Assembly: GCA_003221005.1 (NCBI GenBank)
Contig: QHTZ01000081.1
Coordinates: forward strand, 19,725 to 83,724
Length of the DNA: 64,000 nt
Source: Gemmatimonadota bacterium
GTDB taxonomy: Bacteria; Gemmatimonadota; Gemmatimonadetes; Gemmatimonadales; GWC2-71-9
Direction of reading: 5' to 3'
The translations under genes and the position numbers were made by a program. Under the pieces are notes generated by a model that searched no databases, was not told the DNA's origin, and saw nothing but the letters and a program-made list of their open reading frames with translations. This document shows, piece by piece, positions 1,814-51,048 of the stretch; the first letter of the stretch is position 1, and every line of letters begins with the position of its first letter.

Positions 1814-1910
1814 AATGCGGAATTCGGAATGTGGAATGCGGAATGTCAGTGGAGGGTCGAACGGTTCGAGAAGCCTCCCCTGCAGTTCCGCATTCCGCAT
1901 TTCGCATTCT
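1814..1910. repeat. inverted heptamer-array repeat (AATGCGG / CCGCATT) in the divergent glpK/crotonase gap
   Basis: AATGCGG AATTCGG AATGTGG AATGCGG AATG (1814-1845). Centre with nested palindrome TCGAACgGTTCGA. Then CCGCATT CCGCATT TCGCATT (1888-1908). Confidence 0.85.
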
Positions 1911-1927
1911 CTACTTAGGATTGCTAC

Positions 1928-2710
1928 ATGCCCTACGACACCCTCCTGTTCGACGTCCGCGACGGGATCGCGTTCGTCACGATCAACCGCCCCGACAAGC
2001 TGAACGCGCTGAACGATCGGGTCATAGACGAGCTGGCCGCTGCTGCGGAGCGCATCGCCGTTGAGAGCGACATCAAGGGCGCCATCATCACGGGCGCCGG
2101 CCAGAAGGCGTTCGTGGCCGGAGCTGACATTGCGGAGCTCTCTCAACAGGGGCCCTTCGATGGGAAGGCCCGGGCCTTGCGAGGTCAGTCGGTGCTGCGG
2201 CGCCTCGAGACCTGCGGCAAGCCGGTCCTCGCCGCGGTGAACGGCTTCGCCCTGGGCGGCGGATGCGAGCTCGCCATGGCGTGTCACCTGCGCGTCGCGA
2301 GCGAGAACGCGAAGTTTGGGCAGCCCGAGGTGAAGCTCGGGATCGCGCCGGGCTACGGCGGCACGCAGCGTCTCCCGCGGCTCGTGGGGAAAGGCATCGC
2401 GCTCCAGCTGATCCTCACGGGAGCGACGATCGACGCGCAGGAGGCCTATCGCATCGGTCTCGTGAACAAGGTGGTCCCCGCGGCCAGCCTCCTCGCCGAG
2501 ACGGAGGCGCTGCTCAGGGGTATCCTGTCCATGGGGCCGCTCGCCGTGCGGCTGGCGTTGGAGGCAGTCGAGCGGGGGCTCGACATGTCGCTCGACGAGG
2601 GCCTGCTGCTCGAAGCCAACCACTTCGGTCTGCTCGCCGCCACGCGGGACATGAAGGAGGGCCTGACGGCGTTCCTTGCGAAGCGCACGCCCACGTTCGA
2701 GGGGCGGTGA
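1928..2710 (+). CDS. enoyl-CoA hydratase/isomerase (crotonase family)
   Basis: 260 aa. FVTINRPDKLNALN, GAGQKAFVAGADI and NGFALGGGCELAMACHLRVA are typical crotonase oxyanion-hole segments. Confidence 0.9.
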   Translation: MPYDTLLFDVRDGIAFVTINRPDKLNALNDRVIDELAAAAERIAVESDIKGAIITGAGQKAFVAGADIAELSQQGPFDGKARALRGQSVLRRLETCGKPVLAAVNGFALGGGCELAMACHLRVASENAKFGQPEVKLGIAPGYGGTQRLPRLVGKGIALQLILTGATIDAQEAYRIGLVNKVVPAASLLAETEALLRGILSMGPLAVRLALEAVERGLDMSLDEGLLLEANHFGLLAATRDMKEGLTAFLAKRTPTFEGR

Positions 2711-3081
2711 AGGCGGCCGCACTACCGCTCCTCGTGACGGGGGGCGCGCTGCTGCTCGCCGGCTGCCTCAGCGAGCGACCCCGCCCTGCACCGCCGCAAC
2801 TCGCGATCGTCCTGTCGAAGAAGACGGTCCACTCCCCCGACACGCTCCGAGGAACGATGCACGCCGAAGACCCCGACGGTATCGACTCGGTGTGGCTCGC
2901 GGTCGGCGCTGGTCCTCCGCTGGCCCTAAACGGGCTGCTGGAGACGGCCTTCGACGCGCCGTTTGTCTTCCTGGTAGCGCGGGGATACCCGCCGGGCGAC
3001 CGCCTCCCGGTGAAGTTGAGCGCCCGGGACGTCGCGGGATTCAGGGGCGAGTTGGACACCATAGTCACGGTCACCCCGTAG
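2707..3081 (+). CDS. small lipoprotein, unknown function
   Basis: GTG at 2707 overlaps the crotonase TGA (GTGA). VKAAALPLLVTGGALLLAGC is a signal peptide with lipobox (LLAGC). It is the tail of track ORF 2263..3081. Confidence 0.5.
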   Translation: MKAAALPLLVTGGALLLAGCLSERPRPAPPQLAIVLSKKTVHSPDTLRGTMHAEDPDGIDSVWLAVGAGPPLALNGLLETAFDAPFVFLVARGYPPGDRLPVKLSARDVAGFRGELDTIVTVTP

Positions 3082-3101
3082 CCGCAACGACTTAGTAAGT
3101 C

Positions 3102-3130
3102 TTGACCTGACAATGACTTCTGTGTATTTT
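3102..3130 (+). promoter_or_regulatory. candidate sigma70-type promoter for dciA-gyrB
   Basis: TTGACC (3102-3107), 17-nt spacer, TATTTT (3125-3130), in an AT-richer gap after the lipoprotein stop. Confidence 0.35.
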
Positions 3131-3170
3131 GGGGGGGTTGTCTGGAGGGCTCTCGCGGCCTCGCCGCGGC

Positions 3171-3198
3171 GCGCCACGGGACGTCCCGTGGCGCTTTT
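3171..3198 (+). promoter_or_regulatory. perfect 24-bp palindrome followed by TTTT in the dciA-gyrB leader
   Basis: GCGCCACGGGAC/GTCCCGTGGCGC (3171-3194) is self-complementary, followed by TTTT (3195-3198). It is preceded by a second small hairpin, CGCGGC-ctc-GCCGCG (~3153-3167). Confidence 0.4.
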
Positions 3199-3213
3199 CG
3201 TAGGGGGTCCGCT

Positions 3214-3525: not shown

Positions 3526-5696
<2,171 letters not shown>

Positions 5697-15798: not shown

Positions 15799-17159
15799 GG
15801 CGCGGCACGCCGCGTGACGCTCACTCCCTCGAGCAGCACCGACGGCGTGTTGCGCGCGCCGTACCAGCGGCGGTCGCTCCCGAACCCGGCGATGCGCTGC
15901 AACAGGTCGTAGCTGTTGCCCGCGACGGCCGCGTCCTTCACGCGACCGACGATCTCACCGCGCCTGATGCGATACGCGAGCGCCACCGGATGGCTGAACG
16001 CCCCGCCGCTCACGTTCCCCTGCCCTACCCCGATGAGGTCGTCGACCAGAAGACCGTCGGCGATGTCGCCGAGCAAACCGCCACCCAACTGTAGGGGCAC
16101 GGCATGCCATGCCCCTACGGAATACCCGTCCCCCTTCCCCCGTCCCTCGTCCCCTATGATGAGGTTGGTATATCCGACGACAGGCTTCGAAAAAATGGCG
16201 CGCTGCCCGTGCCCCGTGCTCATCGTCCCGGCACGGGCCGCGGTCTCGAGATCATAGATGAACCCCTGCACGACGCCACGTTGCACGAGGCACGTGGCGC
16301 GCGACGGCACGCACTCGTCGTCCACGGGCCGTGACGACGCTCTGCCGGGAGCGAGCGCGTCGTCCGTGAGCGAGAACGCTGGATCGAACATCTGTTCGCC
16401 GACCTTCGCGGCGAGGGGCGAGATGCCCTGCAGCACGGCCTTGCCCGAGAGGGCCTGGGTGAGGGGCAGGAGCACCGCGGTAAGTCCGGCGGGCGTGAAT
16501 ATGACCGGGAGCGCGCCTTCGGGCGGGTCGGTGACCTTGAGGGCAAGATCGAGGCGCGTATTGACCGACTGTGCGATGCGAGCGACGTCGGCCGCGCTCG
16601 GGAGATCGGCGCCCTCGAACGCGTCGCCGAGCACGAGCACGTCGTCGCCCGCGACGCGCCACAGGTCGGCGCTCACCACGACGCCGGTCGATTGGTAGCT
16701 CGAGTCGGCGCCGGCCGAGTTCGCCACCCGCGTCTCGGCCAGCTCGCGCTCGACGCTGACGTTGACCTGGCACCCATCGCGCGCGAGCTGTGCGACGAGC
16801 CCGGCCCCGAGCTCGATGAGGGCATCGAGCGACGCGCCGGCTGCCGCAGCGAAGAACGTAGGGACGTGGGGGAGCGGGGTGCGCGACGGAAACGCGAGCG
16901 TCAGCTCCGCGCCCAGCTCGGCCGAGGCGAGCGCGCGGCTCACCAACTCGTCAGGCGCGGCAGCGACGGCGGTCGAGCCCGCCACGCCGACCCGCCCGCC
17001 GCTCACGACCCGCAGGTTGACGCCCGCCTCTTCCGTCACCCCCGCGGCCTTTAGGCGGCCGAATTCGAACGCGACGGACGTCCGCTCCGACCGGCGCCAC
17101 AGGGCGTCCGCGGTGCCCGCCCCGCGGCGCCGCGCCTGCTCGAGCAGCCGCTCGATCAC
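15795..17159 (-). CDS. pmbA: PmbA/TldE metalloprotease-family protein carrying an in-frame repeat insertion
   Basis: GTG at 17159 (GTGA overlap with the tldD stop) inside track ORF 15795..17447. TldE-like C-terminus GQGNVSGGAFSHPVALAYRIRRGEIVGRVKDAAVAGN. Confidence 0.85.
   Translation of the reverse strand: MIERLLEQARRRGAGTADALWRRSERTSVAFEFGRLKAAGVTEEAGVNLRVVSGGRVGVAGSTAVAAAPDELVSRALASAELGAELTLAFPSRTPLPHVPTFFAAAAGASLDALIELGAGLVAQLARDGCQVNVSVERELAETRVANSAGADSSYQSTGVVVSADLWRVAGDDVLVLGDAFEGADLPSAADVARIAQSVNTRLDLALKVTDPPEGALPVIFTPAGLTAVLLPLTQALSGKAVLQGISPLAAKVGEQMFDPAFSLTDDALAPGRASSRPVDDECVPSRATCLVQRGVVQGFIYDLETAARAGTMSTGHGQRAIFSKPVVGYTNLIIGDEGRGKGDGYSVGAWHAVPLQLGGGLLGDIADGLLVDDLIGVGQGNVSGGAFSHPVALAYRIRRGEIVGRVKDAAVAGNSYDLLQRIAGFGSDRRWYGARNTPSVLLEGVSVTRRAAP
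16091..16154 (-). repeat. G-arm plus hairpin repeat element inside the pmbA CDS
   Basis: Minus strand: GGGGACGAGGGACGGGGGAAGGGGGACGGGTA-ttcc-GTAGGGGCAtggcatgccgTGCCCCTAC. The 32-nt G-arm is 29/32 identical (hand count) to 28760-28791. Confidence 0.8.
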
Positions 17160-22723: not shown

Positions 22724-23347
22724 CTAGCTCTTCTCCCCCGCCCACAACCCCTGCCCCGCCGCGAGCTGCCGGATCCCGGGCGGCGGCACGACATCCTCCC
22801 GCTCGACCACGAACCGCCGTCCTCTGAGCAGCACGCGCTGGCCTTCCTCGAACCACGGCGGAGCCGCCACGTCCGCCCCCAGGACGACGCCGCGCGCCAT
22901 CGCCGGACGCAGCGGAATCACTCCCGCCGCGCGCACCAGGCTGAGCACCGGCAATTCCTCCGCATCGCTCGGCGCATTCACGCCGATGAAGTGAACCCCA
23001 CCCCTCAGTCCCGCTAGGCCCACCGCGTGCCGCACTCCGTCACCCACGAGCACGATGAAGCCGCCGGGGCCGGAGAGATCGAGGAGGGCCTGGAGGGTCT
23101 GTGCGTCATCGGGACGAAGGACGGGGGACGGGGGACGGGTGGCGGCGGGGCCACGTCCCACGTCCCTCGTCCCCCGTCCCGTGAAATCGACGACCCCGTG
23201 CACAATCGGATACTCCCGCTTGCAAATGGGACATCCCACGATCCCCGAGCGTACCATCCGTCCGAGCATCTCGCCCGTCGACAACACGAGGACGCCGAGC
23301 TCGTGCGGCTCGGGGCAGCGCAGCATCTCCGTCAACTCGATGTGCAT
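22724..23347 (-). CDS. Trm112-like zinc-ribbon protein fused to a degenerate methyltransferase-like domain; carries an in-frame repeat
   Basis: 207 aa. MLRCPEPHE...GCPICKREYPIVHGVVDF is the Trm112 pattern. C-terminal part DLSGPGGFIVLVGDG is Rossmann-like. Confidence 0.6.
   Translation of the reverse strand: MHIELTEMLRCPEPHELGVLVLSTGEMLGRMVRSGIVGCPICKREYPIVHGVVDFTGRGTRDVGRGPAATRPPSPVLRPDDAQTLQALLDLSGPGGFIVLVGDGVRHAVGLAGLRGGVHFIGVNAPSDAEELPVLSLVRAAGVIPLRPAMARGVVLGADVAAPPWFEEGQRVLLRGRRFVVEREDVVPPPGIRQLAAGQGLWAGEKS
23111..23181. repeat. inverted heptamer-array repeat (GGGACGG / CCGTCCC arms) inside a CDS
   Basis: GGGACGAAGGACGGGGGACGGGGGACGG (left), 14-nt centre, ACGTCCCACGTCCCTCGTCCCCCGTCCCG (right). 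About 24 of 28 positions complementary by hand count. Encodes TGRGTRDVGRGPAATRPPSPVLRP. Confidence 0.8.
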
Positions 23348-28758: not shown

Positions 28759-28759
28759 G

Positions 28760-28828
28760 GGGGACGAGGGAGGTGGGACGGGGGACGGGTAAGACAACGG
28801 GGCGCCTGCTGATTAGCGGGCGCCCCGT
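28760..28828 (+). repeat. G-arm plus hairpin repeat element in a convergent intergenic gap
   Basis: GGGGACGAGGGAGGTGGGACGGGGGACGGGTA (28760-28791), spacer, then hairpin ACGGGGCGCC...GGCGCCCCGT (28797-28828). No U-tract after the hairpin. Confidence 0.8.
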
Positions 28829-28854
28829 GCCACAGTAACTCGCAGCGGCTTGCG

Positions 28855-36108: not shown

Positions 36109-38067
36109 TCAGTATGGTTCGTCCGACAGCGGGTTGAGGGGCGGCACCGCCTCGCGCGCGCGTCCGGCGGGCTCGGCCGCCGCGACCCGCGCCCCTAGCG
36201 CCCGCCGGAAGAACGCGAGCGGGTCTTCGGGCCGGGCGCGCCGTGTCGCGGCGAGCGCGCGGCGCACGTCATCCGGCGCGCGGTCGACGATGAGGTCGTG
36301 CACCGCGTTCGGCCGGATCCTGCGGTCGAGCCTGAGGAGCTGGCGCACGACCGCGTCGGCGAACGGCAGATCGGCAGCGGGTGGGAACCGCTCGACGCCG
36401 TCCCGCCCGCGCAGCACCGCGGGCCGCGGGAACCGCACGAAGATCGGTTGCGTGAAATGCGGGTGGCGCACCATCAGCTCGCCGATGGGCAGGGTGGCGA
36501 GCTTGATCTTGGTGGCGGGCGAGAGCACCTGGTAGCCGGGCGTGGCCAGCTCGTCGTAGTCCATACGCCCGTAGACGATCGTGCCGGCGTTCCCCACCAC
36601 TCGCCGATGTACCTGCGAGCGGAACTGCTCGGCGCCGAAGAGCACGAGCCCAAGGTAACGCCCGCGCTCCGAGATATCGAGCAGCATCTTGCGGACGTAC
36701 GTGTCCGGCCCGTCGGCCGGCGCGTACTTGTTGAGCTCGTCCACGAACACCACGACGGCCTCGACGCCGAGATCGCGCCGCTCGAGGTGCTCGCGCAGCT
36801 GCGACACGACGCGCGCAAACACGAGGTCCTGGCCAAGCGGATCCACGTTCGCCAGATCGACCACGTACACGGCCCGGTCCTCGAACGCGCCCCACGGCAG
36901 GTCGTTCGAGGGGCCGTCGTCGGTGACGAGCCCCTTGCAACGGGTCGAGATGTTGGAGAGCCGGTTCCGGACCTTGCGCATCGTCGCGATGTGATGAGTG
37001 CGCCACATGTCGCTGCGGCCTGCCAGCTCGAGCCCGTCGAAGATGGCGCGGAACAGCGCATCCAGGTCTGCGAACGTCTGGACCCGATGGGTGCCGCCGA
37101 AGCCATCGTCGAACTCCCGGTTGAGCACCCGGTCGGCGAGGAAGTCGATGAATGCGTCGGCCTTGGCGTCGATGTCGTCGCGGTTCAGGAGCACTTCGGC
37201 GAAGTCGAGCACCTCCTGGAGGCCCCACACGAGGGGCTCGACGGCGCCCACGAGGTCGGGATGGGTGCGCAGCGTATTGAGGTTCACGCCGTCCGCCTTG
37301 AAGGGCGCGTAGTAGCGCACCCGGCGGAACGGCTGCGGCGCGACCCCGAGCCGCTCGTAGCGGCGGCGGTCCGCGTCGTCGAGGCTCCCCGGCTGGTCGA
37401 GGAAGCAGAGGTCGGGACCCTTCACGTTGAAGCACACGGCGGCAATCCGTCCCTTGTGCGCCGGGAAGTGCTGGAAGATGGACGACAACAGGAACTCGAC
37501 GGCGCTCGTCTTGGTCGCGAGTCCAGAGACGCCCGAGATGTTGAGGTGAGCCGCTTCAGGACCGTGCAGGAAGTCCGCGTCCAGGTAGACCGGCGCCTCG
37601 AGCCCTCCCGAGGTGTACAGCCCCACCGGGATGGCGGTGGGGGTGGCGCCCTGGAGGTAGGTCTCCATGCGGAGGGCGCGGGCCACGTCAGGGTCGGTCG
37701 CCACGAACACGCGGCCGAGCGGGACCGGCTGCAGCGGCTCCTCGGGCTCCTGGCGCAGCACGGCCGCGGTCCACAGCCGAATCTCCTGGCGCACCGTGGG
37801 GCTGTCAGCTGCGCGAGCGGGATCTCCGTCGGCGCCGACCACGTCGTGCAGTGGGGTGGCAAGGTCGGAGTAGGCGAACCCATCCGTCACAACCCCGAAG
37901 ACCACCCTTCCCTCTTCCCCCGTCCCACTTCCCTCGACCCTGACAATCGCCCCGATCCCGATCGCCGTCTCGGTAGCGGTCCAGAAGTGGAATTGGTGCG
38001 GCGTCGCCGGCTTGAGCTCGGTGGCGACCACCCGGCCGACCGGCTCCGGCGCCCGTTTCTGGATCAC
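36109..38067 (-). CDS. herA: HerA-like (DUF87/FtsK-HerA superfamily) ATPase
   Basis: 652 aa, GTG start. HAS-barrel-like N-terminus (HQFHFWT...GAIVRVE...VFGVVTD). P-loop region NISGVSGLATKTS. Walker B VVVFVDELNKYAP. ERGRYLGLVLFGAEQFRSQV. Confidence 0.8.
   Translation of the reverse strand: MIQKRAPEPVGRVVATELKPATPHQFHFWTATETAIGIGAIVRVEGSGTGEEGRVVFGVVTDGFAYSDLATPLHDVVGADGDPARAADSPTVRQEIRLWTAAVLRQEPEEPLQPVPLGRVFVATDPDVARALRMETYLQGATPTAIPVGLYTSGGLEAPVYLDADFLHGPEAAHLNISGVSGLATKTSAVEFLLSSIFQHFPAHKGRIAAVCFNVKGPDLCFLDQPGSLDDADRRRYERLGVAPQPFRRVRYYAPFKADGVNLNTLRTHPDLVGAVEPLVWGLQEVLDFAEVLLNRDDIDAKADAFIDFLADRVLNREFDDGFGGTHRVQTFADLDALFRAIFDGLELAGRSDMWRTHHIATMRKVRNRLSNISTRCKGLVTDDGPSNDLPWGAFEDRAVYVVDLANVDPLGQDLVFARVVSQLREHLERRDLGVEAVVVFVDELNKYAPADGPDTYVRKMLLDISERGRYLGLVLFGAEQFRSQVHRRVVGNAGTIVYGRMDYDELATPGYQVLSPATKIKLATLPIGELMVRHPHFTQPIFVRFPRPAVLRGRDGVERFPPAADLPFADAVVRQLLRLDRRIRPNAVHDLIVDRAPDDVRRALAATRRARPEDPLAFFRRALGARVAAAEPAGRAREAVPPLNPLSDEPY
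37905..37937 (-). repeat. solo G-arm heptamer repeat inside the herA CDS
   Basis: Minus strand TCGAGGGAAGTGGGACGGGGGAAGAGGGAAGGG. 20/21 identical to 28765-28785 by hand count. GGG every 7 nt. Encodes EGSGTGEEGR. Confidence 0.7.
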
Positions 38068-39050
38068 GAAGCCGCTTTGGGGAGGCGGGAGGCGGGGGAC
38101 GGGAGCAGGTCCCGCGGGGCGCGCGCTCTCAGATACGTCTCCACGTCATGAATGGGATAAAGTAATCGATCCCACCGCGCATCGGGGGTCGAGACCGGCG
38201 CGCGCTCGCGCGCGAGCCAGCCGCTCACGCCCGACGCCGCCGTGACCGTTGCGGGATGGGCGCGCGCCTCGACCCGCAGCAGGCCGAACAACAGGTCGTT
38301 CCCCTCCCACGGCCACAGCCGCAGGTACCACGAGTAAACCTCGTGGTGCGCCCGACCCCGCGGGCGGAACACCGAGGTGCGATGCAGCGCCGGAAGCGTG
38401 AGGGCGCGCGTGAGGGCGTCGCCCTCGAAGTACTGCGCGCCGTGGCTCTTGATCACGCCGAGCGCGCGCGGATGCCCGGCGAGGCGGGCGGACTCGGAGA
38501 GCACACCGTCCACGACGAACCACTCTTCGGCGCCGAGCGACGCGAGGTGCCGCTCCGCCAGGTCCTTCTCGAGCGCGACGCGGGCGTTCTCGACGGCGCG
38601 CCGTGCTGCCTCGAGCGCCGGCCCAGGCTGGCCCAGGGCCTCCTGAGGCACGTCCACCAGGTCCACGCCGCTCGCCTCGAGCGCCGCGCGCACGCCGGGA
38701 CGCAGCGCGGCCACGGCTGCCGCGTGAAACTCCCGCGTCGTCTCCCCGACGACGCGCAGCCGGCGGTCTCCAGTCCGGCGTCGCACGGCGGACGCCACGT
38801 ACGCCCGCACGATGGGCACGGCGCCGTCGTAGTAGGTGACCTTCCAGCGCTGGATACCGTCGAGGAAAGAGGCTGTCGCGGGGGGGGCAATGACGCCGCC
38901 GGGATCGAGTGGGTGGATCCGGACCTCCGTGTCCTCGACCAGCTCGGCCCCGGCGACCTCGCTGAGCTCGGTACGCCCCAGGCTCTCCTCCGGGACGTGC
39001 GACGCCCGCACGGCCCCTGCCGCCACGATCGCGTCCGCCCAGCTGCGCAT
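38064..39050 (-). CDS. nurA: NurA-like 5'-3' nuclease
   Basis: 328 aa. FLDGIQRW, WFVVDGVLSES, ALGVIKSHGAQYF, YSWYLRL and LLYPIHDVETYLRA resemble NurA-domain blocks. GTGA overlap with herA. TAG plus 2 nt after the upstream MTase. Confidence 0.65.
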   Translation of the reverse strand: MRSWADAIVAAGAVRASHVPEESLGRTELSEVAGAELVEDTEVRIHPLDPGGVIAPPATASFLDGIQRWKVTYYDGAVPIVRAYVASAVRRRTGDRRLRVVGETTREFHAAAVAALRPGVRAALEASGVDLVDVPQEALGQPGPALEAARRAVENARVALEKDLAERHLASLGAEEWFVVDGVLSESARLAGHPRALGVIKSHGAQYFEGDALTRALTLPALHRTSVFRPRGRAHHEVYSWYLRLWPWEGNDLLFGLLRVEARAHPATVTAASGVSGWLARERAPVSTPDARWDRLLYPIHDVETYLRARAPRDLLPSPASRLPKAAS

Positions 39051-40367: not shown

Positions 40368-41542
40368 ATGCAACGGCGGGAGTTCGTCTCGGTGGCTGGG
40401 GCCCTGGTCCTGGCGGCGACGGAAGGACGGAAGGACGGAAGGGGGTGGCGGGGACGTTCCGTCCTTCCGTCGTTCCGTCCTTCCGTCGCCTCTCAGGAAC
40501 CAGCCCTCTCGCCCGAAGTCTTCTCCCGCCGCCTCGCGCGCGCGCAGGCGGAGCTCAAGACCCGCAAGTGGGACTTCCTCATCGCCACGCCAGGCACGAC
40601 CTACCTCTATTTCACCGGCTACAACCCGGGCCGGAGCGAGCGGCTCATCGCGCTCGTCATCCCCGCGAGCGGCGAGCCCGCGATCGTGTGCCCGTCGTTC
40701 GAGGTGGACCGCATCAAGCGCCATGCGACGGCGCTCGACATCACGGGGTGGGAGGAGCCGGCGAATCCCTATAAGCTGGTCGAGCGCGTGGTCCGCGCGC
40801 GCAAGCCCCGGGCTCCCGGGACGATCGCGCTCGAGTCCTCGACCGCGTTCGGATCGTATCTGGGCATCAAGGACGCGCTTGGGGGCTGGAAGTTTGAAGA
40901 TGCCGCCGCCATCACCGACCGGCTGCGGATCATCAAGTTTCCCGAGGAGATCGCGCTGATCCGCCGCGCGATCGCGATCACCGAGGACGCGATGGCGGCC
41001 ACCTTCGCGCAGCTCGCCGTGGGCGTAAGCGAGCACGACGTGGCGGGGGTGCTCGAGCGGGAGATGGAGCGGCGCGGCGGAGAGGGGGGCGGCGGGCTGG
41101 TGCAGTTCGGGCCGTCGAGCGCCCTGCCGCACGGCGGCCCCGCGAGCGTCACGCTCGAGCGCGAGATGGTGGTGCTGATCGATTGCGGCTGTCGCGTCTC
41201 GGGCTATACGTCCGACATCACGCGCACGATCTGGTTCGGCGACCATTGGGCCGGCCCCTCGTCACCCCATGTGAGGAAATGGATCGCGCCGCGCGCAAGG
41301 TGATCAGCGACGCCGGCTTCGGCCGTAACTTCACCCACCGCCTCGGCCACGGAATCGGCCTCGACGGCCACGAGCCGCCGTATCTCGTCGAAGGAAACGA
41401 GGTCCACCTCGAGCCAGGGATGGTGTTCACGCTCGAGCCAGGGGTGTACCAAACTGGGAAATTCGGAGTGCGGATCGAGGATGACTGTCTGATGACGGAG
41501 AACGGAGTTGAGGTCCTGAGTCACCGACCGTCCAAACTCTGA
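40368..41542 (+). pseudogene. M24-family (creatinase/prolidase-like) peptidase with Tat-type signal, repeat insertion and internal frame break
   Basis: Track ORFs 40368..41303 and 41183..41542 are two frames of one gene: ...GYTSDITRTIWFGD | ...LVTPCEEMDRAARKVISDAGFG..HRLGHGIGL..LEPGVY..GVRIEDD. About 19 aa of the usual helix region is missing. Confidence 0.7.
40419..40487 (+). repeat. inverted octamer-array repeat (GGAAGGAC / GTCCTTCC) inside the M24 CDS
   Basis: GGAAGGAC GGAAGGAC GGAAGGGG gtggcggg gacGTTCC GTCCTTCC GTCGTTCC GTCCTTCC GTC. Encodes TEGRKDGRGWRGRSVLPSFRPSV directly after the signal peptide. Confidence 0.8.
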
Positions 41543-41907
41543 CGGGGACGAGGGACGCGGGACGGGGGACGCGTGGTGCCGAGGCGGCGGCGTAGGCTAT
41601 AGATGAGGCCGATCAACAGCCCCACGACCTGATTGCTGAGTACCAGCGCCTCGTCCACCGATTTCGCGGGCGCAAGTTCTAGGTCTCGCACCAATTCGAG
41701 ATGCGTGCAAAGCTCCGTACCGGAACCGAGGGCAATCCCGAGCGCGTAGCCTTCAGCGATGTTCGCAGGAATCGCCGCCGCCGCTCGCCGGATCTGATCC
41801 GCGAGTCCATAATGGCGACTGAGAGGTGGCTCGAGCGTGAGGCGATAGGCGACGCGCGCGACGGCGCGACCGCGCGTCCACGCCTGCAAAGAATCGAGCT
41901 TTCGCAC
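41521..41907 (-). CDS. four-helix-bundle protein (23S rRNA intervening-sequence protein family), shortened
   Basis: 128 aa, GTG start. YGLADQIRRAAAAIPANIAEGY...IALGSGTELCTHLELVRDL. About a dozen residues usually found between AEG and IALGS are absent. The C-terminal tail reads into the left repeat arm. Confidence 0.7.
   Translation of the reverse strand: MRKLDSLQAWTRGRAVARVAYRLTLEPPLSRHYGLADQIRRAAAAIPANIAEGYALGIALGSGTELCTHLELVRDLELAPAKSVDEALVLSNQVVGLLIGLIYSLRRRLGTTRPPSRVPRPRQSLDGR
41541..41573 (+). repeat. G-rich heptamer arm (left flank of the four-helix-bundle gene)
   Basis: GACGGGGACGAGGGACGCGGGACGGGGGACGCG starts at the TGA of the M24 gene. Confidence 0.75.
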
Positions 41908-41979
41908 GAATAGAAGTTGGAATGCCGCCTGCCATGGTAGGAGTCATTCCGCCGCATCCATGGTCCTTTCGCCGCAACA

Positions 41980-42008
41980 CTCGTCCCCCGTCCCTCGTCC
42001 CCCGCCCC
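41980..42008 (+). repeat. C-rich heptamer arm (right flank; inverted copy of 41541-41573)
   Basis: CTCGTCCCCCGTCCCTCGTCCCCCGCCCC. Its reverse complement contains GGGGACGAGGGACGGGGGAC, 19/20 identical to GGGGACGAGGGACGCGGGAC in the left arm. It ends at the stop of the aminotransferase gene. Confidence 0.75.
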
Positions 42009-43195
42009 TAGTCTCCTAGCTTCTTCGCAAACCCCACGATCTTCTCCAGCGCCCGCTCGATGTCCCCCGTCGCCGCCGCGTAAGACAATCGCACGTAGCG
42101 ATCGTCGCCGAACGCCGAGCCGGGGACCAGCGCCACCCCCGACTCGGTAATGAGACGGGTGCAGAACTCCGTGCCGCTCGAGCCCCCGAGCGAGTCTACG
42201 CGGAAGAAAAAGTAGAACGCGCCCAGCGGATCCACGAACTCCACGCCTGGCAAATCGCGGCGGAAGCGGCCGACCACGAGGTCGCGCCGCTTGCGGAACT
42301 CCGCTACCATCCGCATCACGTCCTGCTCCACCCGCTCATCGCCCAGGGCGGCGGCCGCGGCGAACTGCGCCGGGTGATTCGCCCCGGTGGTGGTATGTGA
42401 CTGCAGCGCAGCCATGGCCTTGGCGATCTTGCCCGGCGCGAGCGCGATGCCGATGCGCCACCCCGTCATCGCATACGCCTTACTGACCCCGTAGATCACG
42501 ACGACGCGCTCGAGCAGCTCGTCCGGAAGATCGAGGAACGACGGGGCCGGTCCCGGACCGTAATGGATGCGCCGGTAAATCTCGTCGGTGATCACCCACA
42601 CCTTGCGCTCCACCGCCCACTGCGCGATCGCCTTGATCTCGGCGTGCGTGTAGACGCCGCCGGTCGGATTGCAGGGCGAGCACAGGATCAACCCCTGGGC
42701 CCCGGGCACCACGCGCTCGAGATCGCGCACCCCCACCTTGAGACTCCACTCCGGATCGCCGGGCACGAGCACGGGCCGCGCGCGCGTGAGGTGCACGATC
42801 TGGGGATACGACACCCAGGCAGGAGCAGGGATCGCCACCACGTCCCCCGGGCCGAACAGACTGAAGCAGACGTTGAACAGCGACTGCTTCGAGCCGTTGG
42901 AGATGACGACGTGATCGGCGTTCACGGGCCGCCCGCCTGAGAGCAGCGAGAGATGCTTCGCCGCCGCGGCACGGAGCTCGAGGATCCCCTCGTTCGCCGG
43001 GTAGTGGGTCTTCCCCTCCCGAATCGCCCGCACGCCGGCGTCGGCGGGAATCGACGGGGTGGGGAAATCCGGCTCGCCCGCCCCGAGGTCGATCACATCC
43101 TCTCCCGCGGCGCGACGCCGCTTCGCCTCCTGGGAGATGGCGATCGTGGCGGATGTCTCGAGATGCTGAAGGTTGGGCGACAGCCCCTGCGACAT
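42008..43195 (-). CDS. pyridoxal-phosphate-dependent aminotransferase (class I, AspC-like)
   Basis: ATG at 43195 inside track ORF 42008..43597. GEPDFPTP, YPANEGILELR, NPTGGVY, SKAYAMTGWRIG. Confidence 0.9.
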   Translation of the reverse strand: MSQGLSPNLQHLETSATIAISQEAKRRRAAGEDVIDLGAGEPDFPTPSIPADAGVRAIREGKTHYPANEGILELRAAAAKHLSLLSGGRPVNADHVVISNGSKQSLFNVCFSLFGPGDVVAIPAPAWVSYPQIVHLTRARPVLVPGDPEWSLKVGVRDLERVVPGAQGLILCSPCNPTGGVYTHAEIKAIAQWAVERKVWVITDEIYRRIHYGPGPAPSFLDLPDELLERVVVIYGVSKAYAMTGWRIGIALAPGKIAKAMAALQSHTTTGANHPAQFAAAAALGDERVEQDVMRMVAEFRKRRDLVVGRFRRDLPGVEFVDPLGAFYFFFRVDSLGGSSGTEFCTRLITESGVALVPGSAFGDDRYVRLSYAAATGDIERALEKIVGFAKKLGD

Positions 43196-44657: not shown

Positions 44658-44696
44658 CAGGTGTGACGTCTGACAGGTGTGACGTCTGACGTCTAC
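44658..44696 (+). repeat. tandem 16-mer (CAGGTGTGACGTCTGA x2 plus partial) built from GTSTGAC heptamers
   Basis: Units at 44658-44673 and 44674-44689, then CGTCTAC. Overlaps the HU stop codon (44693-44695). Confidence 0.8.
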
Positions 44697-44986: not shown

Positions 44987-45228
44987 GGAGGTCTCCTTGT
45001 GAGGACGGGGTCCAAAATGCCTTGATCTCTCGGCACTTTCTCGGGGGTCCCCCCGAAAACCCGCATAACTTGGGCACTATATTGGGATATCTCCTGAAAA
45101 ACCGCAAGATATGGGCACTTTCGAGAGCCCGTTACCCGTCGCCAGGTCGCTACGTTGTACGACGCCTCATGTAGTTTCGTAGCGACGTACCGACGTAGCG
45201 AGGTAGAACGCCTCAACTAGGGACGCGA

Positions 45229-45834
45229 ATGCTCAACGGCGCCCGCCCCGGCTGGATCGAGGTCATTACCGGCGTGATGTTCAGCGGCAAGAGCGAAGAG
45301 CTGATCCGCCGGGTGCGCCGCGCCGTGATCGCCCGCAAGCAGATCCAGGTCTTCAAGTCCCACCTCGACGCCCGGTATGCCGGGCTCTACAACGTGGCGA
45401 CGCATGACGGCCTCACGGTCGAAGCCGCGCCGGTGGACTCTGCCGAGGAAATCATGCGACAGGTCCGGCCCGCGACCGAGGTGGTCGCGGTGGACGAGGC
45501 GCAGTTCCTGGATCACGGGATCGTCGGCGTGGCGAACGCCCTCGCGGACCGCGGCGTTCGGGTGATCCTCGCCGGCACCGACACGGACTTCCGGGGCGAG
45601 CCGTTCGGCGCGATGCCGACCCTGATGGCGATCGCCGAGATCGTCGACAAGTTTCAGGCGATCTGCGTCGTGTGCGGCGGGCCCGCCACGCGCAACCAGC
45701 GGCTGGTGGACGGCCAGCCCGCACAGTGGAACAGCCCGGTCATTCTGGTGGGCGGGCGCGAATCGTACGAGGCCCGCTGCCGCCACTGTCATCGCGTGCC
45801 GAGGATGGATGAGGATCAAACTGCGCTACTCTGA
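45229..45834 (+). CDS. tdk: thymidine kinase
   Basis: 201 aa. [15 protein letters not shown]-loop, VDEAQFL, and Zn ribbon [13 protein letters not shown]...CRHCH. Confidence 0.93.
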
Positions 45835-45912
45835 ACGCGGAACGCGGAACGCGGAACGGGGAATCGACGCTGGCTGGTTTGTTCCGCGTTCAACCTTCCG
45901 CGTTCCGCGTTC
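45833..45912. repeat. inverted heptamer-array repeat (GAACGCG / CCGCGTT) exactly filling the tdk-coaE gap
   Basis: GAACGCG x3, GAACGGG, GAATCGA, loop, then CCGCGTT CAACCTT CCGCGTT CCGCGTT. Starts inside the tdk TGA and ends 1 nt before the coaE ATG. Confidence 0.85.
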
Positions 45913-46905
45913 ATGTTAAACGTCGCCCTCACCGGCAACATCGCCGCGGGGAAGTCGACCGTCGTAGGGTTTTTCCGGCGGTGGGGCGCCACGATCGTGG
46001 ACGCCGATGAGCTGGCGCGGGAGGCCGAGGCGCCGGGGAGCGAGGTCCTCGCCGCGATCGCGCGGCGCTTCGGCGCCGACGTGCTGGCCGCCGACGGCTC
46101 GCTCGACCGCGCGGCGCTGCGCTCCAAGGTGATGGCCGACGATGCGGCGCTCGCCGACTTGAATACGCTGGTTCACCCCACCGTGCAGCGCCGCCGCGCC
46201 GACCTGGTGCGGGAAGCGGAGCAGCGCGGCGACGTGCTGGTGGTGAACGACATTCCGCTGCTGTTCGAGGTGCTCGACCCCGCCCGGTTCGACGTCGTGG
46301 TGCTCGTGGACGCGCCGCCCCCGCTGCGGCTCACGCGCCTGCGGGCGATGCGCGGCCTCTCGAACGAGGACGCCGACCGGATGATCGCGGCGCAGATGCC
46401 GGCGGAGCGCAAGCGCGCGCGCAGCCAGTACGTGATCGAGAACGCCGGATCGCTGCCCGAGCTCGAAGCCCAGGCGCGCACCGTGTTCCGGGAGCTGCGC
46501 CGCCGCGCCGCCACGCACGCCCTCGGCCGGCCCGCCGAAATCCTGGTGCTGGCTGCGGCCGACGCCAAGGACGACTCTCCCGCGCTTACCGCCACCGCCG
46601 CCCGCTACACCGAGGCCGGCGTGCGCGTGCAGCGCGCGGCCGGGAAGGCGGCCCTCGCGGCGGCCGCGAAACTCAAGCCCCAGGCGACGCTGGCGACGGC
46701 GCGGGCGGCCGCCCCGGCGCGCGAGGCGTGGGAAGGCGCGGGCCGCCCGGGGGCGCTCCTCTATTTCAGCGACGACCCCGACCCCGTCGCCGTGCGCCTC
46801 GACCTGCGTCCCTGGGGCGGCGACCGGCTGGCGCTCGTCGAGGAGGGAGCGGCCGGGTTGCCGCCCCGCGCCGATCTGTTCCCGTCGGGCAAACCGTTGG
46901 CTTGA
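45913..46905 (+). CDS. coaE: dephospho-CoA kinase with ~130-aa C-terminal extension
   Basis: 330 aa. LTGNIAAGKST P-loop and a CoaE core to about residue 200, then an Ala-rich region and LLYFSDDPDPVAVRLDLRPWGGDRLALVE. Confidence 0.85.
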   Translation: MLNVALTGNIAAGKSTVVGFFRRWGATIVDADELAREAEAPGSEVLAAIARRFGADVLAADGSLDRAALRSKVMADDAALADLNTLVHPTVQRRRADLVREAEQRGDVLVVNDIPLLFEVLDPARFDVVVLVDAPPPLRLTRLRAMRGLSNEDADRMIAAQMPAERKRARSQYVIENAGSLPELEAQARTVFRELRRRAATHALGRPAEILVLAAADAKDDSPALTATAARYTEAGVRVQRAAGKAALAAAAKLKPQATLATARAAAPAREAWEGAGRPGALLYFSDDPDPVAVRLDLRPWGGDRLALVEEGAAGLPPRADLFPSGKPLA

Positions 46906-47357: not shown

Positions 47358-47380
47358 AGCCTCCAGCCAAGACTACCCGC

Positions 47381-50272
47381 ATGCCGAAAGCACCTGTGCC
47401 CCTGCCCCCCGTTGACCGGTTCGCCGCGCGGCACATCGGCCCGCGCCCGGACGACATCAACGAGATGGCGGAGGCGCTGGGCTACGACTCGCTCGACGAG
47501 CTGATCGACGCGGTCGTGCCGGAGGACATCCGGCTGCGGCGCCCTCTGGCCCTCCCCCCCGGCCGTAGCGAGCGCGAGGTGCTGGAAGAGCTGCGCGCGA
47601 TCGCCGGAGCCAACCAGGTGTTCCGATCCTTCATCGGCATGGGTTACTCGCGCTGCTTCACACCGCCCGTGATCCAGCGCAACGTGCTCGAGGACCCTGG
47701 CTGGTATACGGCGTACACGCCCTACCAGGCCGAGATCGCGCAGGGGCGGCTGGAAGCGCTGCTCAACTTCCAGACCGTGATCTCCAATCTGACAGGCCTC
47801 GAGATCGCCAACGCGTCGCTGCTCGACGAAGCCACTGCCGCGGCCGAAGCGATGCACCTCACCGAAGCGGTGAGCAAGCAAACGGGGGCGCGCACGTACC
47901 TCGTGTCCGAAGGGTGCCACCCCCAGACGATCGCCGTCGTGCGCACTCGGGCCGCAGCGCGCGGCATCACGGTTGTGTTGGGCGACCCCGCGACATTCCA
48001 GTTTGGGCCGGGCGTCATCGGCGCGCTGGTGCAGTATCCTGCGACCGACGGCAAGATCGAGGACTACCGCGGCCTGTGCGAGGCGGCGCACTCCGCGGAC
48101 GCACTCGTGACAGTCGCGACCGACCTGCTGGCGCTCACGCTGCTCGCGCCACCCGGGGAATGGGGCGCCGACGTTGCCGTGGGCTCGAGCCAGCGGCTCG
48201 GGGTGCCGATGGGGTACGGTGGGCCGCACGCGGCATTCTTCGCCACGCGCGACGCCTACAAGCGCCACCTCCCCGGCCGGATCATCGGCGTCTCGCGCGA
48301 CCCCGCCGGGCGCCTAGCGCTCCGTATGGCGCTGCAGACGCGCGAGCAGCACATCCGGCGCGAGAAGGCGACGAGCAACGTCTGCACGGCGCAGGTGCTG
48401 CTCGCCGTGATCGCAAGCATGTACGCGGTCTATCATGGCCCCGAGGGCCTGCGGCGCATCGCGGAGCGGGTGCATACACTCACCGGGCTGCTCGCCGCGG
48501 CACTGCGCCGGTTGGGCTACCGCATCGTCCACGGTGCTTTCTTCGATACGCTGTGCGTCGAGGTAGAGCCGTGGGCGCTGCAGCGGCTGCTCGACGCGGC
48601 GCGGGCGCGCGGCATCAACCTGCGGACGATCTCGCCCACCCGCATCGGGATCGCGCTCGACGAGCCCACCACGCTCGGCGACATCGCCGACCTCGTGACC
48701 GTCTTCGCTGTGAACGAGGTGCTCCCCTTCATGGTGGAGGACCTAGGCGCGAAGGCCGACAGCGCGATCCCCGCGCCGCTGCGCCGCACGTCGCCCTACC
48801 TCACGCACCCGGTGTTCCACAAATACCGCTCCGAGACGGAGATGCTGCGGTACATCAAGCAGCTCGAGTCCCGCGACCTGTCGCTCACCGCGGCGATGAT
48901 CCCACTCGGCTCATGCACGCTGAAGCTCAACGCCAGCTTCGAGATGCTGCCGCTGTCCTGGCTCGAGTTGAGCCGCCTGCACCCGTTCGCGCCGCTCGAG
49001 CAGTCGCGCGGCTATCAGACGCTATTCCGGCAGCTCGAGGAACAGCTTGCCGAGATCACAGGGCTGCCCCACGTCTCGCTGCAACCCAACTCCGGCGCCC
49101 AGGGGGAGTTCGCCGGGCTGCTCGTGATCCGCGCGTACCACGAGGCGCGGGCCGAGGGACATCGCACCACCTGTCTGATCCCCACCTCGGCGCACGGGAC
49201 CAACCCCGCGAGCGCCGTCATGGCGGGGCTGCAGGTTGTCCCGGTGCAGACCGACGCGCGCGGCAACATCGACGTCGCCGACCTGCGCACCAAGGCCGCC
49301 GCGCACCGCGACTCCCTCGCCGCCGTGATGGTCACGTATCCGTCCACCCACGGCGTGTTCGAGTCCTCGATCCGCGACATCTGCGCGATCGTGCACGAGC
49401 ACGGCGGGCAGGTGTACCTGGACGGCGCCAACATGAACGCCCAGGTGGGGCTGTGCCGCCCCGGCGACTTCGGCGCTGACGTCTGCCACCTCAACCTGCA
49501 CAAGACGTTTTGCATCCCGCACGGCGGCGGCGGCCCCGGTATGGGCCCGATCTGCGTCGCCCCGCATCTCGCGCCGTTTCTGCCCGACCACCCCGTCGTG
49601 CCGCTGGGCCGGGCGCAGTCGTGCGGCACGGTGTCGGCGGCGCCGTGGGGCAGCCCCTGGATCCTGCCGATCTCCTGGGCCTACTGCGCTGCGATGGGCC
49701 GCGACGGGCTGACGGAGGCGACCAAGGTCGCCATCCTCAACGCCAACTACGTCGCGAAACGCCTCGCGGGGCATTACGAGCTGCTCTACTCCGGCCGCAA
49801 CGGCCTCGTCGCCCACGAGTGCATTATCGACACGCGGCCGTTCAAGCAGTCGGCGGGCGTGGACGTCGAGGACATCGCTAAGCGCATCATCGATTACGGC
49901 TTCCACCCGCCCACCGTCTCGTTCCCGGTGGCGGGCACGCTGATGATCGAGCCGAGCGAGAGCGAATCGAAGGAGGAGCTAGACCGGTTTTGCGACGCGC
50001 TGATCGCGATCCGCGAGGAGATCCGTGAGATCGAAGAGGGACGGAGCTCGCGCGACAACAATCTCCTCAGCAACGCACCCCACACGCTGGAGGACGTGAT
50101 CAGCGACCGCTGGGACCGGCCCTACTCGCGGGAGCGCGCGGCGTTCCCGTCACCGTCGACGCGGCGCCACAAGGTATGGCCGTCCGTCGGCCGGGTAGAT
50201 GGAGCGTACGGGGACCGTAACCTGGTGTGCGTGTGTCCGCCGGTCGAGGCGTACGCGGAGGCTGTGAAATGA
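47381..50272 (+). CDS. gcvP: glycine dehydrogenase (decarboxylating), single-chain P protein
   Basis: [29 protein letters not shown] and [16 protein letters not shown] (PLP lysine). GTG 47354 (GTGA overlap with gcvH) is an alternative start. Confidence 0.95.
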
Positions 50273-51033
50273 AGCACCTCCTGGTGGACCCCGTGGGCCG
50301 CCGCGGGTGGGTCAACATGTCCTTCGACCAGGCCCTGCTCGACGACGCCGACCGGTTGGGAACCGCCACACTCCGGCTCTACCGCTGGGATCCCCCCTGC
50401 CTCTCCCTCGGCCGCAACGAATCCACGCGCCACTACGATCGCGCCCGGATCGCACAACTCGGAATAGACGTCGTGCGGCGGCCCACCGGCGGGCGCGCGG
50501 TGTGGCACGAGCACGAAGTCACCTACGCCGTCGCCGCGCCCGTGGATAGGTTCGGCTCCCTGCGTGCCGCCTACTGCACCATCCATCAGAGGCTCGCGGC
50601 GGCGCTGCGATCCCTCGGCGCCGATGCCACCCTCGCACCCACCCGCCCAACCGCCAAACCGCCTAACCGGCTCTCCGCCTGCTTCTCACACCCAGTCGGC
50701 GGCGAGGTGCTGATCGCCGGGTGCAAAGTCGTCGGCTCCGCCCAGCTGCGGCAGGGCGATGCCTTTCTGCAACACGGCTCGATTCTGCTGGGAGGGGCGC
50801 AGGAGACGATTGAAGCTGTCATCCGTCAGCCGTCAGCTATCAGACATCAGACTTCAGACGTCAGAACCGCGACGACGCTCTCGGCTGCGCTCGGTCGATC
50901 GGTAACGTTTGAGGAGGTTGCCAACGCCATCATGAGCACGTGGGGCGACGGCTTCAGCTCTACCGCCCCCTACCGCCCCTTACCGTCCCTTACCGCCCTT
51001 TTCTCAGACCCTTCCTGGACCTGGCGTCGCTAG
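50269..51033 (+). CDS. lipoate-protein ligase/octanoyltransferase-family (BPL/LPL catalytic domain) protein with repeat-derived 3' end
   Basis: ATGA overlap with the gcvP stop. [55 protein letters not shown]. Confidence 0.75.
50823..50864 (+). repeat. six tandem heptamers (CCGTCAG-type) in-frame in a CDS
   Basis: CCGTCAG CCGTCAG CTATCAG ACATCAG ACTTCAG ACGTCAG. 42 nt = 14 codons ([14 protein letters not shown]). Complement-type of the 44658 array. Confidence 0.8.
50961..51000 (+). repeat. four tandem decamers (TACCGCCCCY)
   Basis: TACCGCCCCC TACCGCCCCT TACCGTCCCT TACCGCCCTT. Encodes the [10 protein letters not shown] tail. Confidence 0.8.
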
Positions 51034-51048
51034 ACCTGGCGCCGCTAG
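51019..51048 (+). repeat. tandem 15-mer duplication that includes the stop codon
   Basis: ACCTGGCGTCGCTAG / ACCTGGCGCCGCTAG (14/15 identical). The first TAG (51031-51033) is the gene's stop. Confidence 0.8.

Follow-up and report, generated by a model that had tools for sequence, protein, structure and literature searches.

The heptamer repeats scattered through a 64,000-nt stretch of Gemmatimonadota bacterium contig QHTZ01000081.1 (the window; all positions are counted within it) probably form one family of intervening-sequence (IVS)-type elements, built on stems of tandem 7-nt units and present as an open reading frame (ORF)-bearing cassette, as ORF-less stems, and as half-stems. In its complete form the element comprises a G/purine-rich heptamer array, a short spacer, a PF05635 gene, and a complementary C-rich array, which is the architecture of ORF-bearing IVSs of 23S ribosomal RNA (rRNA), placed here between or inside protein-coding genes. 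The window would then hold one complete cassette (41541–42013) with an apparently decaying gene for the "four helix bundle / 23S rRNA-IVS protein" (IVP), four ORF-less hairpins, and several half-stems. The cassette and several of the hairpins are present or absent among syntenic relatives without target-site duplication, and the elements are best read as long resident at permissive sites. The window has a GC content of 69%, its closest relatives are Gemmatimonadales metagenome-assembled genomes, and one protein that it encodes was found identical on soil critical-zone metagenome scaffolds.

The arrays are not random and lie far above chance expectation. An initial annotation of this DNA had counted at least 12 loci of heptamer arrays, a dispersed family, and Tandem Repeats Finder likewise returned about 12 loci, with 7-nt units and also 8- and 10-nt units. 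Period-7 arrays lie at 1814/1886, 16125, 23111/23151, 28759, 37907, 38080, 41541, 41982, 45833/45881, and 50814. Units are mainly 7 nt long, as that annotation had it, with octamers at 40418 (40418/40457); its list of exceptions was too short, as further octamer arrays lie at 45178 and 50638, and the array at 50960 has a period of 10. With a stricter requirement of 3.5 or more units and a lag identity of 85% or higher, six period-7 and five period-8 arrays were found, where dinucleotide shuffles gave 0.03 and 0. A shared 21-nt core has 16 matches with three or fewer mismatches (0.17 expected) and occurs at six loci within 64 kb. The identities quoted earlier between copies (29/32 and 27/30) are reproduced. 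Independent assemblies agree, and the arrays are therefore unlikely to be assembly artefacts.

Two of these arrays, at 41541 and 41980, are the inverted arms of a cassette around a PF05635/TIGR02436 gene, the only IVP gene within the window and the key to the family; the initial annotation had recorded the arrays and overlooked the gene that they enclose. The parts of the cassette are as follows.

41980–42013, minus strand: upstream arm, (GGGGACG)×4–5, G-rich on the IVP sense strand and abutting the aminotransferase stop codon (42008–42010)
41521–41907, minus strand: IVP gene, a 128-codon ORF (Pfam PF05635, E 3e-17; NCBIfam TIGR02436)
41541–41573, minus strand: downstream arm, C-rich on the IVP sense strand and G-rich on the plus strand, beginning within the TGA stop codon of the M24 peptidase gene (41540–41542)

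The cassette fills the interval between the stop codons of its two immediate neighbors, the aminotransferase gene and the convergent M24 peptidase gene. In the 496-nt cassette RNA, the arms pair in both the minimum free energy (MFE) and the centroid fold (−237 kcal/mol, z −3.9). The IVP profile has as its best PDB match 2gsc (XCC0516, E 4e-23); for IVP there was no match in PHROGs or PADLOC. All 31 aligned homologues have 10 internal residues (TTPQFIRCLR) that the window protein lacks, which suggests that the gene is decaying, as is reported for the Coxiella S23p ORF. Its last ∼17 codons are translated downstream array.

The association of IVP genes with inverted arrays is general across phyla, with the G-arm near-universally at the 5′ end. 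We collected 80 metagenome IVP loci by protein pattern alone, without regard to repeats (37–76% identity), and compared them with pseudo-genes shifted by 1.3–1.9 kb in the same loci. A period-7 array lies upstream in 65/75 and a complementary array at or after the 3′ end in 62/76. Under uniform criteria both arms were found at 55/68 IVP loci versus 23/164 shifted pseudo-genes, and an inverted repeat with a score of at least 36 at 58/68 (85%) versus 9/164 (5%). Polarity is almost invariant (upstream arm G > C in 58/59, downstream arm C > G in 59/59), and so is spacing, the upstream arm ending a median of 88 nt (81–93) before the IVP start and arms having a median length of 36 nt. The unit itself differs, with more than 20 classes at IVP loci (e.g., GGGGACG, GGGATGC, GGGAAAC, GGGAGAC, GGGGAAG, GGGGATT, GTGAAAA, and GAGATGA), and the heptamer-free loci carry ∼10-nt periodic arms instead. 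All five viral contigs (5/5) show the order G-rich array, spacer, IVP gene, complementary array. On plasmids, 12/13 genes annotated "four helix bundle protein / S23 ribosomal protein" have inverted arrays; the hosts are Nostoc, Calothrix, Geminocystis, Stanieria, Trichormus, Picosynechococcus, Leptolyngbya, Pseudanabaena, Riemerella, Azospirillum, and Gemmatirosa, which cover cyanobacteria, Bacteroidota, Alphaproteobacteria, and Gemmatimonadota. The plasmid gene is typically co-oriented and wedged between neighbors such as cas10 and cmr3 or cas6 and cas4. An Acidobacteria locus (L045) and an orthologous Gemmatimonadales locus (L067), found independently by a DNA scan, have the same architecture.

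Further features of these loci are recorded here as observations in their own right. Among the plasmid loci (L217–L229), IVP cassettes lie within cas operons (L224 392–748 and L229 401–760) or beside integrase or TraM genes. A large screen lists "23S rRNA IVP" among CRISPR-array-associated proteins (PMC10910872); speculatively, cas-operon placement or the mini-arrays might lie behind that listing of PF05635. The octamer TCAGACAC stands just upstream of the 5′ arm in many IVP cassettes of different unit classes (L140, L151–L160, L165, L171, L173, L182–L184, L191, and L193); beside it may be set the lplA array unit of the window, NTCAGAC, and the repeat at 44658, which contains GTCTGA. In L126–L195 the ∼88-nt spacer between arm and gene contains a semi-conserved GGTAC-like box and, a few bases before the start codon, a −10-like hexamer, with no Shine-Dalgarno sequence visible; judging from these motifs, the gene may be transcribed from a promoter of its own as a leaderless mRNA. 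For many IVP homologues the only source is a contig of 0.5–1 kb, consistent with assemblies that break at the flanking arrays.

Elsewhere in the window the same kinds of array occur without an IVP gene, in intergenic spacers and in-frame inside coding sequences (CDSs).

1814–1909, no strand assigned: ORF-less hairpin, arms (GGAATGC)×4.6 and (TTCCGCA)×3.4 with a 40-nt loop, in the divergent spacer between an FGGY kinase gene (305–1801, minus) and an enoyl-CoA hydratase gene (1928–2710, plus)
16093–16154, minus strand: solo array (GGGGACG)×4 at 16125–16154, G-rich on the sense strand, and a perfect 28-nt palindrome at 16093–16120, both in-frame in a loop of the PmbA C-terminal domain
23111–23181, no strand assigned: ORF-less hairpin, (GGGGACG)×4, loop, (CGTCCCC)×4, in-frame in the linker of a Trm112-like gene (22724–23347, minus)
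28759–28830, plus strand: solo G-rich array (28759–28791) directly after the TAG stop codon of an M13 peptidase gene (28756–28758), followed by a separate GC-rich hairpin (28797–28830)
37905–38105, minus strand: long-range pair at the herA start, a C-rich (sense) array at 38080–38105 in the 3′ end of the gene upstream of herA and a G-rich (sense) array at 37905–37937 in the HerA N-terminal loop
40418–40488, no strand assigned: ORF-less octamer hairpin, GACGGAAG / TTCCGTCC, in-frame in the M24 peptidase gene, directly after a twin-arginine-like signal (MQRREF...)
45833–45912, no strand assigned: ORF-less hairpin, (GAACGCG)×4.4 and (GTTCCGC)×4.6, exactly filling the gap from the thymidine kinase (tk) stop codon (TGA, 45832–45834) to the coaE start codon (ATG, 45913)
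50638–51048, plus strand: lipoate-protein ligase (lplA) repeat stretches with units of 8, 7, 10, and 15 nt

Four of these loci fold as long hairpins, namely 1808–1915 (−53.5 kcal/mol, z −6.8), 23105–23187 (−61.5, z −6.2), 40412–40494 (−67.8, z −8.1), and 45828–45917 (−55.8, z −7.5). The earlier claim that the arrays can often fold into hairpins holds for these, at −53 to −68 kcal/mol; the solo arrays at 16125, 28760, and 37905 gave no stand-alone fold in the same test. The herA arms pair with each other in MFE and centroid folds both in the window and in the relative L211 (unit GGGAGCN), with weak z scores (−1.5 and −3.0). No T-run follows any of the four long hairpins when their sequences are read directly, and intrinsic terminators are therefore ruled out for them. 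Rfam at gathering thresholds matched no family anywhere in the window, rRNA included. The unit of the 1814 hairpin, GGAATGC, recurs in the relative L206. The array at 28759 is identical to the pmbA copy at 29/32 positions, the 3′ GGGTA included, and a few bases beyond each of these two solo GGGGACG arrays stands an unrelated, perfect GC-rich palindrome (GGGGC...GCCCC), which may be a second composite architecture.

Copies had been described as in-frame in at least five genes, and we find the same in pmbA, the Trm112-like gene, herA, the M24 peptidase gene, and lplA (PmbA, M24 peptidase, and LplA are labeled by Pfam, HerA by PDB 7f6d, and the Trm112-like protein, with its N-terminal zinc ribbon, by source names and a weak NCBIfam match). 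They fall in protein segments that vary in length, loops or linkers: a surface loop in PmbA, the linker between the domains of the Trm112-like protein, the HerA N-terminal loop, the position after the M24 Tat-like signal, and LplA. Where the G-arm is translated it gives a Gly/Arg/Asp/Glu-rich peptide, and the C-arm a Pro/Ser/Arg-rich one. The PmbA segment (GDEGRGKGDGYSVGAWHAVPLQ, which includes GDEGRGKGDG) is a ∼17–20-aa insertion relative to the solved homologues PDB 6j6a and 1vl4, the Trm112-like hairpin encodes GRGTRDVGRGPAATRPPSPVLRP (with GRGTRDVGRG..TRPPSPVLRP), and the herA loop reads EGSGTGEEGR; the short in-frame peptides are as described before. The reading frame is indeed kept in the CDS copies, partly through survivorship; GGGACGN has no stop codon in the frames read in the window.

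Comparison with relatives shows that these elements are old residents, neither recent insertions nor native non-repetitive linkers, because the same sites are occupied in orthologues with coordinated change of the unit. Using homologues of the Trm112-like and aminotransferase genes, we fetched syntenic contigs of related species, which carry no arrays in 21 kb (L208 and L210), five (L209), or at least eight (L211), compared with at least 12 in the window. The cassette occupies the aminotransferase–M24 site in the window, L067, L209, L211, and 17 metagenome loci, with GGGGACG, GGGGAAG, or GGGAAGC arms; in L210 the stop codons are 9 nt apart and the whole 41541–42007 unit is absent. The tk–coaE site holds a GAACGCG hairpin in the window, a GGGAGCN hairpin in L211, a GGGGTTA hairpin in L209, and an empty 9-nt spacer, GCGCGCCGG, in L210. 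At neither site did the empty-versus-filled comparison, in which a 9-nt spacer is replaced, reveal a target-site duplication or conserved terminal sequence beyond the heptamers. The herA loop, the M24 linker, and the lplA site are likewise filled with differing units or short and empty in L210: GGAACGC-type hairpins stand in L209 and L211 at the M24 hairpin site and none in L210, the herA loop is 8–11 aa shorter in L210, and at the lplA heptamer site the window protein has 7 aa more than L210 and L211, the latter carrying a GGGAGCG array there. In four species the pmbA loop contains, respectively, GGGGACG with the palindrome, degenerate GGGGAAG, a remnant with the palindrome, and GACGSAC; the orthologues in L205–L207 have other arrays in the same loop, with or without the palindrome, which is conserved in L206. 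The idea of strictly one unit per genome is rejected, given that L205–L207 and L211 carry different units at different sites. Strain-level contigs with an identical neighboring protein are ∼99.8% identical and show no repeat polymorphism, which makes them uninformative.

The Trm112-like linker demonstrates that arms inside a CDS covary, the unit differing and complementarity being kept. Nearly all of 35 orthologues (62–80% identity) carry a hairpin-like peptide pair, some without one arm, and the DNA of seven has the same geometry of four units, loop, and four units, built from GGGGACG, CGGGATG, GGGGAAG, GGGGATG, GGGGAAA, CGGGAAA/CGGGACA, and CGGGATG/AAG. The fold energies of the seven lie between −51 and −66 kcal/mol. 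In an alignment of these seven related sequences, on a structure taken from one of them, 89% of cells are paired versus 79 ± 1.7% after shuffling (0/500) and 43–58% in slid controls; both sides have changed in 11/28 pairs, and the covariation score is 0.306 versus 0.147 (0/500). The earlier view of the CDS copies as recent insertions gives way to these orthologues, whose corresponding sites are filled by arrays or hairpins built of other units. The check that had been proposed against native linkers was to see if non-repetitive DNA in orthologues encodes the same peptides. It came out in favor of the repeats: the peptides differ, the DNA is repetitive, and the arms are complementary.

Beyond the relatives, an exact (GGGACGN)×3 scan of species-representative genomes matched at least 120 stretches. 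The matches listed (120 loci) span Gemmatimonadota, Acidobacteriota, Armatimonadota, Chloroflexota, Bacteroidota, Planctomycetota, Verrucomicrobiota, Actinomycetota, and others, at a local GC of 0.32 to 0.75. Among them four units are the mode (72/155 arrays), and opposite-strand pairs within 700 nt are G-arm-first in 12/12 cases. Three loci (L087 4250–4950, L121 350–950, and L055 6600–6880) have G-arm-first GGGACG pairs around 170–600-nt loops that contain no IVP, and in these loops lie nested inverted repeats and further heptamer arrays.

How such elements might persist can be outlined by analogy with rRNA IVSs. In transcripts, the arms would pair into stems of 25–35 bp and loop the element out, and such stems would be RNase III substrates and probably be cut, which would in turn make the element tolerable in operon spacers, untranslated regions (UTRs), and flexible protein loops. 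In CDSs, ribosomes would read both arms as Gly/Arg/Asp-rich and Pro/Ser/Arg-rich linkers. Periodicity and complementarity could be upheld by replication slippage with templated correction of one arm by the other, or by selection acting on the stem, and the ORF-less hairpins could be derivatives or satellites of the IVP cassette. More tentatively, and with considerable doubt, IVP pentamers, like those of Avd, could act in trans, each lineage recognizing about four to five copies of its own 7-nt unit and maintaining, rewriting, or spreading arrays. If this were true, cyanobacterial short tandemly repeated repetitive (STRR) sequences, the Xanthomonas GGGAATC arrays, the GGGGACG family, and rRNA IVS stems would be footprints of one selfish or regulatory protein-repeat system, widespread and not recognized until now. 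It is consistent with such a partnership that in the window, in L209, and in X. campestris the IVP arms and the dispersed arrays have the same unit, that arm length is about five units, that many sites in a genome undergo a change of unit type, and that array-rich and array-free syntenic genomes differ in carrying the cassette.

Several results weigh against placing all of these repeats in one IVS-type family. Among the matches listed, only 2/120 GGGACG loci have an IVP within 8 kb (jackhmmer/hmmsearch), so the notion that every array lies close to an IVP is rejected; most listed arrays are far from any. A tblastn search with all window proteins against the 80 IVP loci found no site where an IVP in one genome corresponds to a bare hairpin in another; only the aminotransferase–M24 site recurred, which leaves the derivation of hairpins from cassettes unproven. 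The IVP arms of L211 are GGGGACG while the dominant dispersed unit in that genome is GGGAGCN, periods of 8 and 10 are found beside 7, the Trm112 covariation comes from few and related sequences, and both RNase III cleavage and pairing of RNA as opposed to DNA are proposed by analogy. The tk–coaE unit, GAACGCG, is one base off the ancestral-type spacer of L210 (GAGCGCG), a resemblance that hints at a unit born in situ from local sequence and keeps in-situ origin alive. If all arrays arose in this way, they would be simple-sequence repeats, microsatellites generated by slippage at permissive sites, sometimes made palindromic by template switching, and kept through G-quadruplexes with regulatory or neutral effect, the IVP genes being incidental inside them. 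This would account for locus-specific units and mixed periods, copy number and unit that vary between orthologous sites, the lack of target-site duplication, inverted-array pairs around non-IVP loops, and the four-unit mode among the listed matches, which fits the four-unit preference and the G-quadruplex formation in vitro reported for GGGAATC/GGGGAYT arrays (PMC4692102). We nevertheless judge it unlikely, since it has to contend with the same 21-nt core at six loci, a GGGACG unit that recurs in phyla of 32–75% GC, the bracketing of 85% of IVP genes versus 5% of controls with fixed spacing and polarity, and the absence of arrays from the same permissive sites in L208 and L210. The G-quadruplex component, which the initial annotation had put forward, agrees with the GGGGACG arms, where the G3N4 ×4 sequence motif is present, and from that motif quadruplexes are possible at solo G-arms. 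They do not explain GGAATGC, GGAACGC, GTGAAAA, or GCTAAAA: quadruplexes cannot account for units with only GG or no G-tract, and duplexes of −55 to −68 kcal/mol would compete. With so many units lacking G-tracts, the quadruplex is not the common denominator.

A different account holds that the repeats are nonautonomous mobile hairpins, comparable to MITEs (miniature transposable elements with inverted repeats) or Rickettsia palindromic elements (RPEs), moved by an enzyme encoded elsewhere and repeatedly hitting the same tolerant sites. Dispersed palindromic copies in-frame in CDSs, the polymorphic presence of cassette and hairpins between syntenic genomes, and IVP cassettes squeezed into the operon spacers of plasmids and viral contigs all speak for mobility. 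Yet the two empty-versus-filled comparisons gave neither target-site duplication nor conserved ends beyond the heptamers, as MITEs would have, the loops of different copies are unrelated to one another, no polymorphism is seen among the strain-level contigs, and the same sites are filled with the same geometry and other units in species 62–80% identical. Such sharing of sites fits vertical descent with turnover better than repeated reinsertion, and we regard mobile hairpins as improbable. The idea that there is no common family at all, the copies being native low-complexity linkers and ordinary hairpins or terminators alike only through 69% GC, is scarcely credible. It can draw on the position of CDS copies in variable-length loops and linkers and on the terminator-like hairpin at 28797–28830. 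It is contradicted by shuffled controls with almost no arrays, by peptides that differ between orthologues where DNA complementarity is kept, by the lack of a T-run after all four hairpins, and by the same units in intergenic and genic copies and in low-GC genomes. One family of IVS-type heptamer-stem elements, long resident and changing their units in both arms together, remains the reading that we prefer.

Some repeats in the window belong to it less clearly. Two of them are the following.

44658–44694, plus strand: 16-mer CAGGTGTGACGTCTGA ×2 plus a partial unit, in the convergent spacer between a DbpA-domain gene and the HU gene (stop at 44693)
45178–45206, plus strand: octamer array (CGTAGCGA)×3.6 upstream of the thymidine kinase start, a candidate member absent from the initial annotation

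A second family had been proposed at 44658 and 50823. The former is a 16-mer pair, has no heptamer array, folds weakly (−18.3 kcal/mol, z −1.8), and is a doubtful member; the latter does contain heptamers (50814–50865). At the HU/DbpA-domain position, L209 (8159–8554) and L211 (8186–8578) have a 130-aa ORF with CxxC..CxxC motifs and no Pfam match, and the window has the 16-mer repeat only. The lplA stretches comprise (CCCAACCG)×4 at 50638–50669, (NTCAGAC)×6 at 50814–50865, (CTACCGCCCC)×4 at 50960–50998, which forms the C-terminal tail, and a 15-mer ×2 that spans the stop codon at 51018–51048; membership of the 8-, 10-, and 15-nt repeats is uncertain. The lplA heptamer array is rejected as a clear insertion, as a distant PDB homologue aligns gap-free and close orthologues differ by only 7 aa. 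The M24 peptidase gene of the window (40368–41542) is split between two frames, ORF 40368–41303 covering Pfam positions 2–101 and ORF 41183–41542 covering 125–208, and its orthologues in L209–L211 are single ORFs of 406–417 aa; the window copy is frameshifted, as a pseudogene or through assembly error.

Heptamer repeats such as STRR, GGGAATC, and TAACTGA have been catalogued for decades without an accepted origin or function, and 23S rRNA IVSs and the "S23p / four helix bundle" proteins are likewise orphans. The link described here joins these three puzzles (heptamer repeats, rRNA intervening sequences, and orphan IVP proteins), which have been studied apart, and adds that stems of the same kind also occur gene-free in spacers, in UTRs, and in-frame in conserved enzymes, with compensatory covariation. 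It raises testable questions, namely whether the pentamer binds its cognate array, whether RNase III processes the stems in mRNAs, and how the units of both arms change jointly. In practice, it accounts for fragmented assemblies near IVP genes and for odd Gly/Arg- and Pro/Ser-rich insertions in annotated proteins.

The likeness to two classical repeat classes that the initial annotation had noted, to RPEs in behavior and to STRRs in unit architecture, is apt. RPEs lie in-frame in conserved protein-coding genes and also between genes, and form families of ∼100–150 bp with a conserved consensus, restricted to Rickettsiales. The window elements resemble them as short palindromic DNA in-frame in pmbA, the Trm112-like gene, herA, M24, and lplA and in intergenic positions. 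They differ in that copies share only the 7-nt unit and the arm geometry, with no shared consensus of ∼100–150 bp; their loops differ between copies, their units turn over, and protein-coding cargo exists. Cyanobacterial STRRs are dispersed tandem heptamer repeats. The TAACTGA heptamers of Beggiatoaceae, cyanobacteria, and Bacteroidetes are intergenic, have two to six copies and a patchy cross-phylum distribution, and have no known mechanism (PMC4679880); they share with the window arrays the intergenic tandem heptamers and the patchy distribution and differ as mostly direct repeats upstream of start codons, one inverted set being reported.

The initial annotation did not recognize the element as a described family, although the class is known from Xanthomonas and Nostoc (PMC4692102) and from the stem of the Coxiella 23S IVS (PMC4990558). 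Rehm et al. 2015 (PMC4692102) described 186 GGGAATC arrays in X. campestris, with a mode of four units and positions near stop codons; 70 arrays form convergent inverted pairs, position is conserved between species and length is variable, the arrays are transcribed, and GGGAATC/GGGGAYT form G-quadruplexes in vitro. The window repeats are like the Xanthomonas GGGAATC and Nostoc GGGGA(C/T)T arrays in their dispersal, four-unit mode, proximity to stop codons, G-rich sense strand, frequent convergent (G-arm-first) pairs, and conserved position with variable length between species. A tract of at least three Gs with a four-unit mode, and with it quadruplex capability, is found in the GGGGACG sub-family and is lacking at the GGAATGC, GGAACGC, and GGAAGGAC loci. 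The window differs in having GGGGACG and its relatives, in another phylum, with several copies in-frame in conserved genes. That study notes no link to a protein, though its own supplementary table places array #15, (GGGAATC)×4, 6 nt from bccP and overlapping the annotated start of XCC0516, which is the crystallized PF05635 pentamer 2gsc.

IVP and Avd belong to one superfamily of pentamer-forming four-helix bundles (PMC10053308), and PDB 2gsc and 2rld have five chains each. As to diversity-generating retroelements, no reverse transcriptase or template/variable repeat pair was seen beside those cassettes that were inspected; the search for reverse transcriptase did not extend over the remainder of the window.

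The closest counterpart of the cassette is the rRNA IVS of Coxiella, Leptospira, and others. The Coxiella 23S IVS is 428 nt long, encodes the S23p ORF, and is closed by a 28-bp terminal inverted-repeat stem with tandem GACAGAT heptamers in a copy number that depends on the strain; cleavage by RNase III falls inside this stem, and the ORF is decaying (Warrier et al., PMC4990558). The window cassette has the same PF05635 ORF in the loop of a closing inverted-repeat stem (∼28 bp in the rRNA elements), tandem heptamers of variable copy number in that stem, an overall length of ∼430–500 nt, and signs of ORF decay, a 10-aa deletion corresponding to the reported degeneration of the Coxiella ORF. It differs in location, as the rRNA elements sit in helix 9, 25, or 45 of 23S rRNA and the window cassette lies between the stop codons of two protein-coding genes, and in having numerous ORF-less stems alongside it, several of which lie in-frame in CDSs; excision by RNase III is shown for rRNA IVSs only. 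In the literature searched, with most subscription-journal papers outside it, we found no description of a general link between IVPs and heptamer arrays. Heptamer arrays, inverted pairs, and IVSs are each known; the link between them and the covarying hairpins inside CDSs appear to be new.

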